Under the pieces are notes generated by a model, which saw nothing but the letters and a program-made list of their open reading frames with translations, searched no databases and was not told where the DNA came from. A stretch of 64,000 bases of DNA, from assembly GCA_000004695.1 (NCBI GenBank), contig CM000152.2, positions 480,001 through 544,000 on the forward strand, given 5' to 3'. The stretch is from Dictyostelium discoideum (Eukaryota). Both the position numbers and the translations under genes were made by a program. Below, in pieces: positions 24,882 through 51,677 of the stretch (the stretch's first letter is position 1; the number at the start of each line of letters is the position of its first letter).

Positions 24882-25795
24882 AATTTAATTTTTATTATTA
24901 TTTAATATTAATATTATTATTATTTCTATTACTTTTACAGCATTTAGTATTTATAATTTAATTGTAAAGAGAGAACCAGAGCCAGAGAAATTTGAAAAAT
25001 ATTATCATGTTTTTTGTTGGGTTGTACCATTTATAATGTCAGTGATAATGTTGTCAAAGGGTGTTATAGAGGTGACGGGTAATTGGTGTTGGATTGGTAA
25101 CACTTATGTTGGGTATAGATTTGGCTTGTTTTACGGACCATTTCTTGCAATTTGGTTCCTTGCTGCCGTGTTGGTTGGTTTGACTTCGAGGTATACCTAT
25201 AAGGTGATTAGAAGTAGTGTTAGTGATAATAAGGATAGACATATGACCTACCAATTCAAGTTAATCAATTATATAATTGTTTTCCTTTTATGTTGGGTGT
25301 TTGCTGTTATTAATCGTATTGTCAATGGCTTGAATATGTTTCCAGCTTGGGTTAGTATTCTTCACACCTATCTAAGTGTATCGCATGGTTTCTATGCTTC
25401 GGTGACTTTTATCTATAATAATCCATTGATGTGGAGATATTTAGCATCAATAATTTTAATTCCATTCACAAAGTTTGGTTATTTTGTTGAAACTCAACAA
25501 AGATTAGAAAAAAATAAAAATAATAATAATCATTCACCAGTTGGGTTATCAAATAATGCTCAAAATAATAATCATCATCATAATCATAATAATAATCACA
25601 ATAATAATCATAATAATCATAATAACAATAATAATAACAATAATAGTGATTTCGTTAATAATGACTCAAGTAATTATTATACTGCTTCAATGATTGAATC
25701 ATTCTCTGTTCAAAATGAAAATTCAAAATCTATAAATGGTGCTGATAATTTTAAACAAAATGGTGCAAGTCAACAAGATGATAAAGATTCTCCAA

Positions 25796-25878
<83 letters not shown>

Positions 25879-26079
25879 TATAATAATAAAGATATTGAAC
25901 CAATTGACAATTGTAATACTAATTCCATACCAATGGATAATATTGCCACTAGAATTGAAATACCTCCACAACATCCAACATTAACTCCTCAACAATCATT
26001 ACAAGAAATTAATTTAAATGATGACGACAACAAAATTAATACTCACCAAAGTAACAAAAAAAAAGATTCAAATGTTTAA
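24442..26079 (+). CDS. carC: cAMP receptor, cAR family; 2 exons, 490 aa, the size of cAR3; His/Asn-rich C-terminal tail
   Basis: join(24442..24775,24941..26079). Donor TTA T|GTAAGT, acceptor TTTTACAG|CA. The cAR signatures match carD above and cAR1 almost residue for residue in TM1-TM7. The paralog assignment is by predicted length only. Confidence 0.8.
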
Positions 26080-32536: not shown

Positions 32537-33659
32537 TTATTCATCTAGTTGATGAATTGGGAAATAAGTTTGTAAAAGTTTTCCATAAATTTGATAATCT
32601 TCTTTGGTGAAGATACAAAATATAATTCTATCTATTTTTTTATGATGAATTTTCAACCAATTAGAGATGGTTGATAGGGCGATATGAGCAGCATCTAAAC
32701 TTGGGAAACCATATACACCAGTTGCAATACAACAAAAAACAACAGTTTTGAGGTCATTTTTTAAAACGATATCCAAACAAGACTCGTAACATTTCTTTAG
32801 AGTATCTGGATTTTTATCCATTGGACCAACAGTATGAATTACATATTTTGCTGGTAATCTATAACCTCTAGTGATTACTGCTTTACCAAAGTCACATCTA
32901 CCAAAGACTTTACACTCCCTAACGAGACCAATACCAGCTGCCTTATGAATTGAGCCATCGATACCACCACCACCCAACAAAGAGGGTCTGGCTGCATTCA
33001 CAATTGCATCGACTTCCAATGTTGTAATATCACCACCAAATAAACAAAGTTTTTTATTCAAATATGCACTTGGCTCGATCTCATTATTTGGTTTTGGAAC
33101 TCTATGTCTGTTATTCTCTAAAAATTGATACCAACTCGTTAATTGATCCCATGTTTTATAATCGTTACCACAAACATATAATTTTCTTTTCTTTTCTCTA
33201 AATTTAGGATCACTCATATCTAAATCATCTGCCATCATATCTTCTTCACTCTCACCTATACTATTTGAACTTGATGATTCAAATAAACTTTCATCATTAA
33301 ATTCCATTTCATATTTCTTTTTATTTGTTTGTTGTTGCTGTTTACTAATACTATCAAAATCTTTATTATTATTATAATTATTACTATTATTGCTATTACT
33401 ATTACTATTATTATTATTATTCTTTTGAAATGGTTTAAAACTAGCTACAATTTCACGTTTTATATTTCTCCTTTTAGTTGTATCATCAGTTCTTCTTTGA
33501 ACAAAAGCATTATAATCTATAATTTTATCCTCTTTTCCAATTCTAATTATTAAAGATTTTTCTGCATTTTGGTATCCACATTCAATAGTTTCATTTATTT
33601 CTGAATTATATTCTTCCCAACCTGAATCACTTTGCCAATACCATTTACCTGAACCTTGA

Positions 33660-33730
<71 letters not shown>

Positions 33731-34700
33731 GTTATTATTATTATTTGATGAAGAGGATTTTTGAGTAGTTGATGAAGTTGTATTTGTATTTGATGTTTTT
33801 GGTGGTGTTGTTGTTGTTGGTTTTAGTGGTACATTAGAAGTTGTTTTTGGAGTTGAAGTTGTATTTGTATTTGTTGTTTTTATTGGTTCACCTTTTCTAA
33901 CAGGTCTAACTTTTTGGTTATCATCATATCTTCTTTGAAGTAAATTCTCTAAATCTACAAATCTATCATCATCAATTTGACATCTTTTATTTCCTTTTTT
34001 AACTGATTCATCCAATTTTTGAGAATCTGAATCTGAATAATCTCTCCATGTTCCATTATCTTCTCTCCATTGCCATTTTTTACTATTATTATTATTATTA
34101 TTATTGTTGTTGTTGTTGTTATTGTTGTTGTTGTTGTTGTTATTGTTGTTGTTATTGTTGTTGTTACTGTTCCTGCTGTTACTGCTGCTGTTATTATTAG
34201 ATGGTGTTGATGGCTTTGGGGGTGTAGTACTACTTTTAAACATTGAAAATGCATTACTAAATTTAGAATTTTGATTGCTTGAGGAAGAACTTGAATTTGA
34301 ATTTGAATTTGAATTTGAATTTGAATTTGAACCTGGTTTAAATTTAGATTGTTCACCAGTTAAAGAATTTGGAACAGAAGATAATGGTAAATTAATTGGA
34401 ATTCTACGAATTTCTCTTTGTTTTAAAAGTGAATCATATCTTTTTTGTTTAAAAGTTTTAAAGTCGATATATCTTTCTTCATCGATTCTAATATCTTTTG
34501 ATTGTTTTTTATAAGCTTCTTCAATTTGATACATCTTTTCAACATCATAACTCTCCCAACCACTATCGGATCTCCATTGCCATCTATTTGCCAATTCATC
34601 AGAGTTTATTACTGGTTTTGATTGACTTGCTAATTCCTCTTCAATTGATTCATAAACAGATGGATCAATATCAATATCATCATCATCATCAATTTGAATA

Positions 34701-34744
<44 letters not shown>

Positions 34745-34791
34745 GTTATTGTTATTGTTATTATTTGTCTTTTTAAATGGTTGTGGATTAC

Positions 34792-34846
<55 letters not shown>

Positions 34847-35209
34847 GTTATTATTATTGTTATTGTTGTTGTTATGATCATTATCATCAAATTTTCTTTT
34901 TTGTACAGATTTTGGTGTTAAAATTACAGCATTATTAATTTTAACTCTAGAGTCTAAATCTTTTGGTGTTTCAGTCTCTTCATCACTATAAACAAATGTA
35001 CCTTCATCTTTTTTATTTTTGTTGTAATTGTTATTATTATTATTTTTATTATTATTTGATTGATTAAAGAATGATAAATCGTCTGTGTCTTCGTCATTGT
35101 TGTTATTATTATTTCCATGTGGTTGTTGGGAATTTGAGTTATTTGAGCTATTTGAATAAAAACTTCTCATTTTATTACCAAAACTATTTGTTTTATCATC
35201 ATTTGACAT
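32537..35209 (-). CDS. Triple WWE-domain + C-terminal macro-domain protein (ADP-ribose / poly-ADP-ribose reader), 890 aa, single exon
   Basis: Three repeats: RWQWRSDSGWESYD...IDF..FKQKRYD, KWQWREDNGTWRDYSD...VDLENLLQRRYD and KWYWQSDSGWEEYNSE...IDYNAFVQRRTD, matching the WWE pattern (W-W-E, Y, D-h-x-x-h-Q-R). C-terminal macro domain GGDITTLEVDAIVNAARPSLLGGGGIDGSIHKAAG. Long poly-Asn/Ser/Thr linkers. Confidence 0.7.
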
Positions 35210-36516: not shown

Positions 36517-37431
36517 ATGGCAAATAATAATATTGAATTTGAGGATTGGTATTCAATTTTAAATGTTGAACAAGATGCAACGACAACACAAATTCAAAAT
36601 GCATATAGAAAGTTAGCAAGGAAATACCATCCAGATAAAAACAAATCACAAGAGGCAGTGATAATGTTTGAAAAAATCTCTATTGCCAATACTACATTAT
36701 GTGATGAAAATAAACGTATAATTTTCGATTCACAATTATTAGCTAAAAAAGAAAAGAAACGAAAAGAACAAGAAATGGATAACGTTAGAAGGAAAATGAA
36801 ACAAGATCTATTTGAAAGAGAAAACCAATTTAAAAAGAGAAGAGAGAATGATACAAATTCAAAAAGGAATGTTGAAATGGAAAATGAACAATATAGACAA
36901 AATTATATAAATGAATTAAAGAGACAATCACAACAACAACAACAACAGCAACAATATACAAGTGACGAATATTCTCAAGAAAGTTTAGTAATTAAATTAA
37001 AATGGAAGAGTAGGTTAGCATATACAAAAGATCAAATTATTGATATACTATCTAGTTATGGTACTGTTGATACCTTTACAATGGTTGATAATTCTACATC
37101 ATCCTATACGATTGCTTTAGCAACCTTTACACAATTAGAATCTTTATATCAAATTATAGTAAGAAAAGAAGATTTAAAAATGAATTTTAATATAAAAATT
37201 GAAAGATTAAAAGGAACGACTACTGATAGTAATGGTGGTAATTCTAGAAGTACCACCACTACCACCACTACAACCACCACTACCACAACTACTTCATCAT
37301 CATCATCATCGACAAATTCAAACTTTAATACAACAACAACCACAAAAACATCATGTAACAATATTTTAATAGATGAAGATGAAGAAGATGATATTTTATC
37401 AAAAATGAAGAATTTTAAAAAAAATATTTGA
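36517..37431 (+). CDS. DnaJ (J-domain) protein with C-terminal RRM-like region, DNAJC17-like, 304 aa
   Basis: N-terminal J domain DWYSILNVEQDATTTQIQNAYRKLARKYHPDKN with the HPD motif; a central charged coiled coil; a C-terminal segment ...LVIKLKWKS...ILSSYGTVDTFTMVD... consistent with the DNAJC17 architecture. Confidence 0.65.
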   Translation: MANNNIEFEDWYSILNVEQDATTTQIQNAYRKLARKYHPDKNKSQEAVIMFEKISIANTTLCDENKRIIFDSQLLAKKEKKRKEQEMDNVRRKMKQDLFERENQFKKRRENDTNSKRNVEMENEQYRQNYINELKRQSQQQQQQQQYTSDEYSQESLVIKLKWKSRLAYTKDQIIDILSSYGTVDTFTMVDNSTSSYTIALATFTQLESLYQIIVRKEDLKMNFNIKIERLKGTTTDSNGGNSRSTTTTTTTTTTTTTTSSSSSSTNSNFNTTTTTKTSCNNILIDEDEEDDILSKMKNFKKNI

Positions 37432-37462: not shown

Positions 37463-39124
37463 TTATGTAGTAGTATTATTATTATTATTATCATCTTCGT
37501 CATCATTATTTTTTTTATTATTATTATTATTATTATCATCATCATCATGATCAATTTGATTATTTTTATTTTGAAATTTATTTTTTAAAAAACTAATTGG
37601 TTTTACTTCAGAAACTTGAACTATTCTATTGATACGATTTGATTCCTCTTCTAGGAGATCACCTAAAAGTTGAATTTGTTCAAATTGATCTTTTGAGAGA
37701 TCAGCAGAGATTAAAGGACAACCCCATAATGGAGCACGTTTACCAGTTGCTTCCTCTTGAACATTTTGTTGTAATTTACATAATTTAATTTGATGATCTT
37801 CTAATTGATCTCTTAATAATAAAAGATTATTTAATAATGATTGATTCTCTTGCTCCTTTATCATACGTTCCATTACCAAACGTTCGAATCTTTGATTTGA
37901 TAATTCCTGTGTGTACATATTTAACATTGATTCCAAATGAAACTCTTTACTGATATTAACACGCTCTTGCTCTGCCAATTCTTTGACTTGCTCCAATAGC
38001 AATTGGTTTTCAGATTTCTCTTTTTTTGAAACCACTTTCTTTGTGGCCATCTCATAGGCATTGTAAAACATGGATGTGTACAACATCACGGTACGGTCGT
38101 CGGCATTGCCATTGACAAGGTCCTCGGCATCCAACAATTTGGGGATATTGAGATTCTTTTCTGCAAAATCAAATACCGCATTCAAACGTGCAATTGAATC
38201 CAATCCCTCCAAGCCGTCCAACTGGCTGAACGACAACTCCTCGCTCCCCAACACCCCGCCCCTCAAATTGGCACCCTCCAATGCCAAATCCGATGTACTC
38301 GATGGGAATTGTGAGAACTGTCTTGCCATTGATAAAAATGCTAAACCATCTTTAAAACCATTTTTAAATTGTGTGACATTCATACCTGTTAAATTTGAAC
38401 ACCATGCTAATAAATTATTCTCTGCTTCTGTTTGTTCCATTGACACTTGATGATTATTGGAAGATGGTGATGATGATGATTCACCACCACTACCACCATT
38501 GGCACGAATACCTAATATTCTAAACTTTCTATATAATGACCATAAAAATCCAAATATCATCTTTTTATTACCATCATAAAAATCTTCTGCACCAATTGAT
38601 GAAATACTTCTAATCTTTATATCTAATTCTTCTTCAATAAACCATAATGCAATTGTAATATTTTGAATTCTATTAATCTTTTTATTAATTTATTAATAAA
38701 TATATATAATTTTTTTTTTTTTTTTTTTTTTTTAAAAAATTTACTTACTTTATCTTTTGGTTCTGGGTTAAATTTTCTTCTACATTTTTTATTTGAAACC
38801 AATTCTAAGAAATATATTAATTTAGTACCATCAGAAAAATCAGTTGAAATATTTTCAATCTTTAAATTCTTTTTTGATAATAAAGAATTAACCCAACTAA
38901 GAAATGCCTTTTTAAAAAAAAAAAAAGAGTAAATATTTTTTTTTTTTTTTTTTTTTTTTTAGATCTATTACAATTTATCACCAAATTATAAAAAATAAAA
39001 TAAAAATAAAAATAATAAAATAACATACTTTTTCTTGTGCACTCTCCCATCTACTTTGAGCAAGTTGAGTTTGTGATATTGGTTGGGTAGAAGTACTTCC
39101 TTCTGCTGATGTTGATGTAGACAT
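37463..39124 (-). CDS. Actin-binding-domain protein: tandem calponin-homology (CH) domains + coiled coil (cortexillin-like), 3 exons, ~489 aa
   Basis: complement join(39029..39124,38749..38907,37463..38677). Donors AAA|GTATGT and GATAAA|GTAAGT; acceptors AAAAAG|GC and AAAAAG|ATT. CH1: AFLSWVNSLL...DFSDGTKLIYFLELVS...IALWFIEEE...GAEDFYDGNKKMIFGFLWSLYRKF. CH2: LLAWCSNLTGMNVTQFKNGFKDGLAFLSMARQF. Then a ~150-aa heptad-rich coiled coil and an acidic/Asn tail. Confidence 0.6.
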
Positions 39125-39531: not shown

Positions 39532-39800
39532 TTATAGATACCCAATTGTAATATTATTAATTTTTGAAAAACTAACTAATCGTTTTAAAGGACTATTTTG
39601 TGATAAAGAAGAATTTGATAAAATTGTATTTGATTCTAAATTTAATTGGGTAATTTGAGTATTATTTTTTAAAGTATTCAAAACTAACTCTATAATTTCA
39701 TTTGAAAATGTTATTTGATTTTGTGATAAATTTAATGATTTTATATATTTAAAATCATTTGAATCGTTTAAATTTGTAATTATATAATTATTATTATTAT

Positions 39801-39832
<32 letters not shown>

Positions 39833-41243
39833 TTCGTATTTAATTCGAGTGATTGTTGTTCACTATTTGGTTGTTGTTGTTGTTGTTGTTCTTGTTGATG
39901 TTCTAATTCTAAATCGTAATCAAATTGATTTGATAATAAATTAATTAAACCTTTATTACCAATTTTATTTAAAGATAAATTTAAATGTTCTAAATTTTTA
40001 GACTTTTTTAAAACTCTATAGAAATAGATACAACCTTGTTCGCCAATATCATTCATTGAAAGATTTAAAGATTTGATTGTATTGTTTTTTAATAAACTTT
40101 TACATAATATTTTTGAACCATTTGAATCGATTTTATTCGATGAGAGATTAATATTTTCAATGGAACGATTGAAAGAGAGGGCACGTGATATCTCTTTGGT
40201 GCCCTCCAATGTGAGAGAATTCGATGATAGATCAATGGTTACAATCGAGCATAACGATAGGGATAAAGCATTCGTTATGAATTTTATACCTTGTTCTTGT
40301 ATGGAATTTCTAGTTAAATTGATTGATTTTATGTATTGATTAGTTTCCAATGCTTTACCAATCCCATTTGCGCCGTCGTTGCCTAACGAGTTGCCCCATA
40401 GGTCGATTTCCACAAGGGATCGATTGTCCTTGAGGTATTGGCAAATGTAGTTACTGCCCTTGCTTCCTATAGAGTTGCATCTTAGATCCAACTCTGTTAT
40501 GGTCTTATTCTGGGACAGGGCCTCGCCGATCTCCTTGGCCCCCAAATCCCCGATTTCATTATTACTCAAGGATAATTTAATCAACGAGCACGAGTAGGGC
40601 AGGCCCTTGGCCATCTCAATAGTGCCCTCCTCCATGAGTAGGTTGTAGGATAGTATGATCTCTTGTAAACTTTGATTCTTTTTAAATAGCTCGCATAGCG
40701 GCTTGCCGCTGGCCTTGGTCAAATCGCAGTATGATAATCCTAAGAACTTCAATTTGCTACCACTCTCCTCCAATGCCATTGCCAAGTTCTTAAATCCAAT
40801 ATCACCAATCTTATTTGAAAATAAATTTAAATGTGTCAATTGTTTCATACTCTTTTTTATAACTTCAATATATTCAAGATTCATTGCTTCCCCTCCAATA
40901 ACTTTCAATTGTTTCAATGAGTCCATCCTTTTCATCATTTTAAAACTTTCAATCGCTGGTAAATATTTACATCTATCTAATTTTATACTCTCCATCACTG
41001 ACATTCCAATAGTATTCCATAATTTACTTGTACCCAATATATTTATAAATTCTTTATGATTTGGTGTTTCAATTTTAAATTGTTTAATTAATAATTTAAA
41101 TATATTTCCTAAAATTTCAATTGGTAATTCATTTATATTATCATTTTCAATATTATTATTATTATTATAATTATAATTATAATTATAATTATGATAATTA
41201 TGATAATTATTATTATTATTATTATATATTCTATTAATTATAA

Positions 41244-41274
<31 letters not shown>

Positions 41275-41406
41275 TCCTTTAAAAAATATTTTAATCTTTT
41301 TTGATAAATTCAATTTTTTTAATTTTTTTGTTTTATTATTATTATTATTATTATAATTATTATTATTATTATAATTATTTATTATATCATTTTCGTTTGA
41401 TATCAT
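39532..41406 (-). CDS. F-box / RNI-like leucine-rich-repeat protein, 624 aa
   Basis: F-box-like ELPIEILGNIFKLL near aa 95. At least 12 ribonuclease-inhibitor-type LRRs (LxxLxLSxNxIGdxGakxl). Poly-Asn and poly-Gln tracts. Single ORF. Confidence 0.6.

Positions 41407-45687: not shown

Positions 45688-51677
<5,990 letters not shown>

Follow-up and report, generated by a model that had tools for sequence, protein, structure and literature searches.

A gene in the 64,000-nt stretch of Dictyostelium discoideum DNA analysed here (the window) on balance probably encodes a PAR-guided MacroD-type mono-ADP-ribosylhydrolase. Its 890-aa product carries three WWE domains followed by a macro domain at the C-terminus, with poly-Asn/Ser/Thr linkers between them; rather than acting purely as a reader, it is most likely a targeted eraser. 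The open reading frame (ORF), stop counted in, is uninterrupted and begins with ATG, and the gap of ~280 nt between the upstream gene's stop and this ATG is AT-rich, with a run of A before the ATG, so that the single exon given in a preliminary description of the locus is plausible. The features referred to below, with window coordinates, are:

32537..35209, minus strand, complete CDS, 890 aa plus stop, apparently one exon (from the ORF list, ATG start)
34592..35209, minus strand, N-terminal region, aa 1-206, predicted disordered, 38% Asn, without Pfam domain
34892..34900, minus strand, K104-R105-K106, first half of a bipartite basic motif (KRK[FMNE]xD)
34769..34780, minus strand, P144-F145-K146-K147, second half of the basic motif
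34394..34591, minus strand, WWE1, aa 207-272, with W212 (adenine stack), Q255, R265, R246 and D215
34085..34393, minus strand, linker 1, aa 273-375, Asn/Ser-rich, disordered, largely encoded by trinucleotide repeats
33887..34084, minus strand, WWE2, aa 376-441, with W381, R416, Q425 and R435
33653..33886, minus strand, linker 2, aa 442-519, Asn/Thr-rich, disordered
33446..33652, minus strand, WWE3, aa 520-588, with W525, K562, Q571 and R581
33230..33445, minus strand, linker 3, aa 589-660, disordered, with an acidic C-terminal end
33050..33229, minus strand, MacroD-specific N-terminal extension, aa 661-720, aligning to the human MacroD1/2 extensions
32552..33049, minus strand, macro core, MacroD type, aa 721-886
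32945..32998, minus strand, catalytic loop N738-AARPSLLGGGGIDGSI-H755
32987..32989, minus strand, codon AGA, Arg741, replacing the motif Asn (MacroD2 N92, MacroD1 N174, CoV Mac1 N40)
32708..32725, minus strand, diphosphate-binding loop 2, A829-TGVY-G834

A 133-aa ORF overlapping the gene at 33955-34356 was rejected as trinucleotide repeats read out of frame. No tRNA genes were found near the 890-aa ORF, and no link to ADP-ribosylation was seen among the neighbouring genes. A D. discoideum macrodomain protein catalogued in PMC5087659 may be the same protein, and we would guess that it is UniProt Q54YH9 of Gunn et al.; no functional characterisation was found in the literature.

Domain architecture and distribution

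Membership of the macro (PF01661) and WWE (PF02825) families was assigned by the Pfam gathering score. Scanning of the whole protein returned Macro at residues 737-844 (120.3 bits, cut-off 22, E 5.7e-35, full profile 1-118) and WWE in three stretches (103.9 bits, cut-off 21.1, E 5.9e-30), and the WWE repeats scanned singly scored 42.1, 46.9 and 50.7 bits, each above 21.1. No further Pfam family was found in the protein, even at E<=1; a PARP catalytic domain had no match at this level, and no RING, HECT or DTC domain was matched beside the WWE units. In the AlphaFold2 model the WWE units (207-272, 376-441, 520-588), at a pLDDT of about 90, and the macro domain (about residues 661-886) are folded, and 455 of the 890 residues have a pLDDT below 50. 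The HMM searches and the model thus bear out the three WWE domains and C-terminal macro domain of the preliminary description, and its statement that PARP and E3-ligase regions are absent. The model's pTM of 0.35, together with the disordered linkers, would fit a tethering design. A catalytic domain hidden in the ~450 disordered residues was considered and rejected, given no Pfam match at E<=1 and a pLDDT of about 30 in these regions.

Within the N-terminal region, the first half of the basic motif is kept in 6 of 6 full-length dictyostelid orthologues, and the second half reads P[LF]KK or PLKR in most of them; judged by its residues, the bipartite motif appears NLS-like, and the protein is presumably nuclear. 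A collection of 15 billion proteins held no exact copy of the protein, nor of a neighbouring ORF. Homologues were collected by an exhaustive HMMER run, and a word-index search with the whole protein, swamped by poly-Asn, gave 4 matches only. The orthologue search proposed in the preliminary description showed that the WWE-macro architecture is kept throughout the Dictyostelia and that Pelomyxa has a version with two WWE domains; these orthologues are already in the databases as hypothetical proteins. Among the 120 closest named MacroD relatives, none has a WWE domain.

The macro domain and Arg741

The macro domain belongs to the MacroD-type class and is a close relative of human MacroD1 and MacroD2. 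Sequence matches to MacroD2 (E 4.2e-58) and MacroD1 (E 6.9e-57) extend over ~210 residues, N-terminal extension included, and metazoan and holozoan MacroD1/2 are the nearest named relatives of the region. A Foldseek search with the predicted macro fold gave 4iqy and 6lh4 as best matches (TM 0.83-0.84, target-normalised; rmsd 2.0-2.5 Å; 44-46% identity). The top NCBIfam matches were protein-ADP-ribose hydrolase (NF003163) and O-acetyl-ADP-ribose deacetylase (NF001664), with scores of 171.2 and 164.6 against equivalog cut-offs of 272 and 200; by sequence, the domain is related to these bacterial families and is not a member of either. Residues D727, N738, G746-749, D751 and H755 correspond to MacroD2 D78, N89, G97-100, D102 and H106, and G831, Y833 and F867 to G188, Y190 and F224. 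Across the orthologues, D751, H755 and the Gly of the catalytic loop vary little or not at all; the Asp/His dyad (proposed) and the catalytic-loop Gly are among the MacroD site residues (PMC7050489). In this class the macro domain is itself the hydrolase (PMC7050489), so that, with the hydrolase-family matches, the earlier statement that the protein has no catalytic module or hydrolase region is not supported.

Of the two motifs listed in the preliminary description, the phosphate-binding loop GGGGIDG is present (G746-G752), and N-x(6)-GG is not: the Asn position of N-x(6)-GG-[VLI]-D is occupied by Arg741, and the Asn that had been counted is N738, one turn earlier. At the remaining listed site residues the domain shows identity or conservative replacement. 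In the distal ribose, the 2''-OH is coordinated and shielded by the motif Asn, and substitution of this Asn is a routine way to obtain "catalytically dead" macrodomains of viral and human origin. At this position all 10 amoebozoan MacroD sequences examined have Lys or Arg, among them the short MacroDs of Amoeba proteus and Pyxidicula that lack WWE domains; of 255 other MacroD-type domains, 237 (93%) have Asn. No clean K/R clade emerged from a neighbour-joining tree of macro domains, so the amoebozoan grouping rests on the taxon list. A sequencing or annotation artefact was rejected, since ten independent sequences from Amoebozoa have Lys or Arg here, encoded in this gene by an ordinary AGA codon.

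Published substitutions at the equivalent position give a guide to the expected activity. For SARS-CoV-2 Mac1, kcat/KM falls about 10-fold with N40A and about 100-fold with N40D, with binding kept (PMC10499221); in OiMacroD, a cellular MacroD, N30A leaves kcat unchanged and raises Km 3-fold, and de-MARylation persists (PMC5413906); and macrodomains without canonical residues can still be active (PMC11920425). No Lys or Arg variant assayed at this site was found in the literature. By analogy, canonical hydrolase activity with Arg741 may be weak, and activity is likely retained, because ADP-ribose is still bound by the published Asn mutants, whose catalytic efficiency drops 3- to 100-fold.

The WWE units

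The WWE fold is a six-strand half beta-barrel covered by one helix, and the three repeats share the DSSP pattern E-E-H-E-E-E-E in the AlphaFold2 model. In a fold search of the PDB with the WWE1 model (pLDDT 93.8), the top 23 matches were all WWE domains, the best being those of TRIP12, HUWE1, DTX1 and RNF146, and matching structures contain ADP, ADPr, ATP or iso-ADPr as ligand. The repeat profile matches DTX1 at 1.4e-15 and RNF146 at 1.4e-9; a word-index search with the profile of 22 WWE repeats gave no matches. WWE3 departs from the other two in an insertion of 3-4 residues (IRIG) and in an aliphatic residue where WWE1 and WWE2 have Tyr or Phe.

Ligand-contact residues, with roles taken from PMC10877565 and PMC11269756, were compared in an alignment of 22 repeats from eight species. 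The stacking Trp (W212/W381/W525), the adenine-binding Gln (Q255/Q425/Q571) and the proximal-phosphate Arg (R265/R435/R581) are invariant in all 22; of the binding residues whose check the preliminary description suggested, these three are thus conserved. RNF146 R110, a distal-phosphate contact of iso-ADP-ribose-specific WWE domains, is not: 19 of the 22 repeats share an Asp in its place (D215 in WWE1). K175, the other such contact in RNF146, falls outside the part that could be aligned. Y144, a Tyr that hydrogen-bonds the proximal phosphate, is probably not conserved either. An ungapped alignment to TRIP12 and RNF146 places Arg246, Arg416 and Lys562 at RNF146 Y144 and the corresponding TRIP12 Tyr, and the gapped HMMER alignment to RNF146 places Y247 there instead; the Y144 equivalent is probably Arg or Lys. 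Given the Asp for R110 and the probable Arg/Lys for Y144, the ligand could differ from iso-ADP-ribose, with terminal ADP(-ribose) units or some other adenine nucleotide as candidates.

Proposed function and alternatives

In the mechanism that we favour, three independently folded WWE modules, on disordered linkers of roughly 70-100 residues, would bind adenine-nucleotide units of PAR or of ADP-ribosylated proteins with avidity, and would thereby anchor the C-terminal MacroD domain where PARPs are active, probably inside the nucleus. At these sites it would strip protein-proximal or mono-ADP-ribose from acidic residues, beyond the reach of PARG, and possibly act on O-acetyl-ADP-ribose or phosphate-linked ADP-ribose. 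The multivalent ADP-ribose recognition put forward in the preliminary description is accepted here, with PAR as the ligand that we infer for the WWE units. Such a protein would agree with a reviewers' proposal that recruitment sets hydrolase specificity (PMC7050489). D. discoideum has PARG and one MacroD, and no ARH3 or TARG1, on our reading of Table 2 in PMC4245714; a MacroD would therefore be the candidate remover of the last ADP-ribose.

Arg741 keeps alive a weakened form of the dedicated reader of the preliminary description, which is no longer the most likely reading. The Asn-to-Arg change would have made the MacroD a mono- or terminal ADP-ribose binder, and with the WWE units the protein would be a non-catalytic tetravalent reader or scaffold that bridges or shields ADP-ribosylated proteins. 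We consider this unlikely. Lys or Arg in all ten amoebozoan MacroDs, the 10-100-fold loss of activity with ADP-ribose binding kept in Mac1 (PMC10499221), and the lack of any other enzymatic domain in the Pfam scan are all in its favour; however, D751, H755 and the loop Gly, usually lost in reader-type macrodomains, are (near-)invariant, and kcat is kept in OiMacroD N30A (PMC5413906). The replacing residue is also basic in every case and not a random one, a pattern that suggests selection for a function rather than decay, and the WWE-less MacroDs of Amoeba proteus and Pyxidicula, which have a basic residue too, would be odd stand-alone readers. If ARH3 and TARG1 are absent (PMC4245714), an inactive MacroD would moreover leave the last ADP-ribose without a known eraser. 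A rather unlikely alternative is an active hydrolase, still targeted by the WWE array, in which the basic residue shifts preference to negatively charged linkages, such as phosphate-linked ADP-ribose on DNA or RNA ends, ADP-ribose-1''-phosphate or PAR chain ends. Strict K/R conservation at one position adjoining the distal ribose, in an otherwise unchanged site, speaks for it; MacroD1/2 already use OAADPr and ADP-ribosylated nucleic acids (PMC7050489, PMC11920425), and Arg or Lys could, on chemical grounds only, touch a phosphate leaving group. Asp/Glu-linked mono-ADP-ribose nevertheless remains the simplest expectation for a MacroD1/2 orthologue.

A broader version, which we hold to be quite unlikely, gives the Amoebozoa a distinct MacroD lineage in which a selected Lys/Arg re-tunes chemistry or substrates (phosphate-linked ADP-ribose on nucleic acids, ADP-ribose-1''-phosphate or PAR ends, for example), fusion to a WWE array in Dictyostelia and Archamoebae then giving a self-targeting reader-eraser; if true, this would finish de-PARylation in organisms without TARG1 and ARH3. 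It is highly improbable that the WWE units are no readers of ADP-ribose and are instead protein-protein modules or bind another adenine nucleotide, for example ATP, the protein being a MacroD with unrelated regulatory domains. The Asp at R110 and the probable Arg/Lys at Tyr144 would allow this, and some WWE domains bind ATP or ADP in vitro, with PAR affinity varying widely (PMC11269756); against it stand the adenine Trp and Gln and the phosphate Arg, invariant in 22 of 22 repeats, the nucleotide- or ADPr-bound E3 WWE domains as nearest structures, and two independent fusions with an ADP-ribose-processing domain, which point to a shared ligand system.

Little is understood of how mono-ADP-ribosylhydrolases locate their substrates, and reviews favour recruitment over the active site (PMC7050489). 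The PAR-guided hydrolase, if true, would be a natural hard-wired fusion of a PAR reader array and a MacroD eraser, found in an organism that is genetically tractable and has a rich PARP-dependent response to DNA damage, and the Asn-to-Lys/Arg change fixed across Amoebozoa is a natural experiment on the role of the motif Asn. Unless the biochemistry is unusual the finding is incremental, because both domains and their co-occurrence are known, the orthologues are in databases, and the protein may already be catalogued (PMC5087659).

Compared with human MacroD1/MacroD2 (PDB 2x47, 6lh4, 4iqy), which are mono-ADP-ribosylhydrolases and OAADPr deacetylases, the slime-mould protein has ~46% identity over ~219 structure columns (TM 0.84) and shares the N-terminal extension, adenine Asp, Gly-rich loop, Asp/His pair, loop-2 Gly-x-Tyr and Phe; it differs in Arg741 for their Asn (N92/N174), and in adding three N-terminal WWE domains and ~450 disordered residues. 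MacroD1 instead carries a mitochondrial targeting region, and in MacroD2 the C-terminal tail is disordered. With the WWE domains of RNF146, TRIP12, HUWE1 and DTX1/Deltex it shares the fold (TM 0.77-0.84), stacking aromatic, adenine Gln and phosphate Arg, whereas it has no RING, HECT or DTC ligase domain, and its repeats have Asp for RNF146 R110 and, probably, an invariant Arg/Lys for the phosphate-binding Tyr. The WWE repeats of Deltex are packed in tandem, unlike these, which lie on long disordered linkers. PARP14 (macro1-3, WWE, PARP; "writer, reader and eraser", PMC10470015) and a Dictyostelium U-box-macro-WWE-PARP protein (PMC4245714) join a hydrolytically active macrodomain to WWE in one polypeptide, as the present protein probably does; both have the reverse order, one WWE, and a PARP domain that is absent here, so the opposite order to PARP14 noted in the preliminary description holds. 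The PARP14 WWE is a distant structural match to the WWE1 model (rank 20, 15% identity). A SAM-MacroD-WWE-RING protein of a eukaryote (P0153/P0123, Logan assembly) is an independent fusion of a MacroD-type domain and WWE; it has macro before WWE, a single WWE, the canonical Asn and a RING finger, through which it would couple erasing to ubiquitylation.

The gene and its domain architecture

Reading of the window returned the ORF exactly as first described (32537..35209, minus strand, 890 aa), in DNA with a G+C content of ~20% and many poly-Asn tracts. Together with the slime-mould cAMP receptor ORF listed below, this composition places the window in a dictyostelid genome. A run of A directly precedes the ATG, ~280 nt of AT-rich DNA lie between the ATG and the stop of the upstream gene, and a single-exon gene, as predicted from sequence, is plausible. 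The histidine kinase, DnaJ, CH-domain and LRR neighbours had no evident link to ADP-ribosylation.

Neighbouring features
25036-26079, plus strand: slime-mould cAMP receptor ORF (Dicty_CAR profile positions 130-305, E 1.6e-103), evidently a downstream cAR exon, with the first exon of that gene further upstream
36517-37431: DnaJ protein
37463-38560: CH-domain protein
39532-41406: LRR protein
45688-49170, minus strand: hybrid histidine kinase, 1160 aa (PAS, HisKA, HATPase_c, Response_reg)

The exact sequences of the WWE-macro protein and of the DnaJ ORF were absent from a 15-billion-protein collection, and the best relative was only ~60% identical in the macro domain.

In a Pfam scan the three WWE stretches scored 103.9 bits against a cut-off of 21.1, and the single macro domain 120.3 bits against 22, with each WWE repeat also above the cut-off when scanned singly (42.1, 46.9 and 50.7 bits); these assignments are far beyond chance, and no other family came up even with the limit relaxed to E<=1. 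An AlphaFold2 model was built with an eight-species alignment, giving three strand-strand-helix-four-strand WWE modules (207-272, 376-441 and 520-588, pLDDT ~90) and an alpha/beta domain at about 661-886. With a pTM of 0.35 and pLDDT <50 in 455 of 890 residues, the protein is modelled as beads on a string. Asn, Ser and Thr dominate both the first 206 residues and the three linkers of 72-103 aa, which are mostly encoded by trinucleotide repeats, those of AAT/AAC type being confined to these regions, with none inside the WWE or macro domains.

AAT/AAC-type repeats coding poly-Asn linkers
33363-33421
33662-33745
34084-34171
34699-34884

A 133-aa ORF at 33955-34356 (minus strand) was rejected as spurious, an overlapping other-frame reading made by such repeats. 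Upstream of WWE1, all six full-length dictyostelid orthologues carry the basic motif KRK[FMNE]xD followed by P[LF]KK or PLKR, a pair that looks like a putative bipartite nuclear-localisation signal.

The macro domain and the N92 position

Residues 673-890 aligned over ~210 residues with both human MacroD proteins, MacroD2 at E 4.2e-58 and MacroD1 at E 6.9e-57, including an N-terminal extension outside the Pfam core, and the best structural matches of the macro model were 4iqy and 6lh4 (target-normalised TM 0.83-0.84, rmsd 2.0-2.5 Å, 44-46% identity). The best NCBIfam matches were protein-ADP-ribose hydrolase and O-acetyl-ADP-ribose deacetylase, both under their bacterial equivalog cut-offs. 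When the macro region was searched on its own, metazoan and holozoan MacroD1/2 came out as the closest named proteins, and 120 of the 120 named relatives listed contained Macro only. The domain is MacroD-type. Members of this class carry their enzymatic function in the macro domain (PMC7050489), so the earlier reading of the protein as having no catalytic module fails. MacroD2 D78, N89, G97-G100 and D102 are kept as D727, N738, G746-749 and D751, and H106, G188, Y190 and F224 as H755, G831, Y833 and F867. In two relatives, P0007 (657 aa, ENA) and P0008 (694 aa, Logan), a canonical MacroD domain occurs twice in tandem, with ~53% identity of each copy to the query domain.

Arg741 (codon AGA) stands where MacroD2 has N92, the N-x6-GG-[VLI]-D motif Asn by which the distal-ribose 2''-OH is coordinated and shielded; the N-x(6)-GG motif had been described as retained by counting N738, which is out of register. 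This position is Asn in 93% of 255 other MacroD-type domains, and no other strongly conserved column separates the WWE-fused clade uniformly from the rest. Lys or Arg was found in every amoebozoan sequence examined.

Amoebozoa with Lys or Arg at the N92 position
Dictyostelia: the window, Heterostelium, Cavenderia, Tieghemostelium, Acytostelium, Synstelium and one EukProt dictyostelid-like protein
Archamoebae: Pelomyxa
Tubulinea (short, WWE-less MacroDs): Amoeba proteus (P0163) and Pyxidicula operculata (P0158)

WWE-less MacroDs with Lys or Arg also include Anaeramoeba flamelloides (P0134) and the metagenomic or other relatives P0051, P0061, P0160, P0161, P0166, P0218 and P0228. Judged from these sequences, the substitution is Amoebozoa-wide among those examined and, since it occurs in WWE-less proteins of Tubulinea, Anaeramoeba and others, is placed before the WWE fusion. 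Anaeramoeba is non-amoebozoan, and its basic residue may reflect convergence or gene transfer. That the replacement is always basic argues for selection and against decay.

In SARS-CoV-2 Mac1, kcat/KM falls ~10-fold with N40A and ~100-fold with N40D, with ADP-ribose binding kept (PMC10499221), and the N30A mutant of OiMacroD, a cellular enzyme, has an unchanged kcat (0.41 vs 0.48 per second) and a tripled Km, and still de-MARylates PARP1 E988Q (PMC5413906). Several human macrodomains without canonical residues, once presumed inactive, are active (PMC11920425). By analogy with these cases, Arg741 is compatible with activity and could weaken it or alter substrate preference.

The WWE repeats and their ligand contacts

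Contacts were assigned by the roles of RNF146 residues (PMC10877565, PMC11269756). Three contacts are kept in every repeat of every species aligned: the aromatic residue that stacks on adenine (Y107, here Trp), the Gln that binds adenine (Q153) and an Arg that binds phosphate (R163). R110, the iso-ADP-ribose-specific distal-phosphate contact, is a conserved Asp in the amoebozoan repeats. In RNF146 and TRIP12 a phosphate-binding Tyr (Y144) stands three residues ahead of a conserved Asp, a position held by invariant Arg in amoebozoan repeats (R246, R416) and mostly by Lys/Arg in WWE3 (K562). HMMER instead inserts a gap and aligns Y247 with Y144; a Tyr-to-Arg swap seems more likely. On these residues the units likely bind the adenine-nucleotide unit of ADP-ribose or PAR, and strict iso-ADP-ribose specificity is not supported.

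Structural matches of the WWE1 model (pLDDT 93.8) were all WWE, the best being TRIP12, HUWE1, DTX1 and RNF146 (TM 0.77-0.84), with the PARP14 WWE ranking low, and the repeat profile matched DTX1 (1.4e-15), RNF146 (1.4e-9) and TRIP12 (1.6e-8). Repeats cluster mainly by position across species (identity 0.37-0.41 within class, 0.28-0.33 between), a grouping that indicates triplication before the dictyostelid radiation.

Proposed function and distribution

On balance we favour, with modest confidence, a tethered eraser, in which the WWE array would bind PAR or ADP-ribosylated proteins through avidity, holding the MacroD domain at places of PARP activity, where it would take off protein-proximal ADP-ribose, out of PARG's reach. 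The preliminary description stands in its observation and only in part in its interpretation; the reader-only scaffold it proposed draws on Arg741 and is unlikely, since the Asp/His/Gly site is intact, the replacement is basic throughout and Tubulinea have K-type MacroDs that stand alone. A hydrolase with shifted substrate preference is about as unlikely, or slightly more so, and WWE units without any ADP-ribose reading are very improbable. The protein is best described as a MacroD-type enzyme of predicted activity that carries its own putative WWE targeting array and an Asn-to-Lys/Arg change found throughout its lineage.

Of the six macrodomain proteins of Dictyostelium in the catalogue of Gunn et al., one of them an annotated 'Q54YH9', only APL was characterised (PMC5087659, PMC8529158). 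For D. discoideum, Perina et al. give a single MacroD, apparently without ARH3 or TARG1 (Table 2), and do not discuss the WWE fusion (PMC4245714). No functional study of the WWE-macro protein was found in the literature, and orthologues are labelled 'hypothetical protein' or auto-named MACROD2. In one, P0009 (Synstelium polycarpum, 543 aa), WWE3 is truncated and 'GGGGI' runs straight into 'GPTDSD...', with ~50 macro-core residues gone, probably an annotation or intron-prediction error, not a real isoform.

HMMER, run exhaustively against 1.84 billion representatives, yielded 18,245 matches, among the best 150 of which WWE followed by MacroD occurred only in Dictyostelia, Pelomyxa and one partial metagenomic case. 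Two Logan proteins, P0153 (849 aa) and P0123 (495 aa), are arranged SAM, MacroD (canonical Asn), WWE and RING (zf-C3HC4_3), and this separate lineage places the joining of MacroD and WWE, by sequence comparison, at two or more independent events, that is, at least twice. In contrast to the Dictyostelium protein, MacroD here precedes WWE, and the WWE-RING unit is RNF146-like, making a combined eraser and E3 protein possible.
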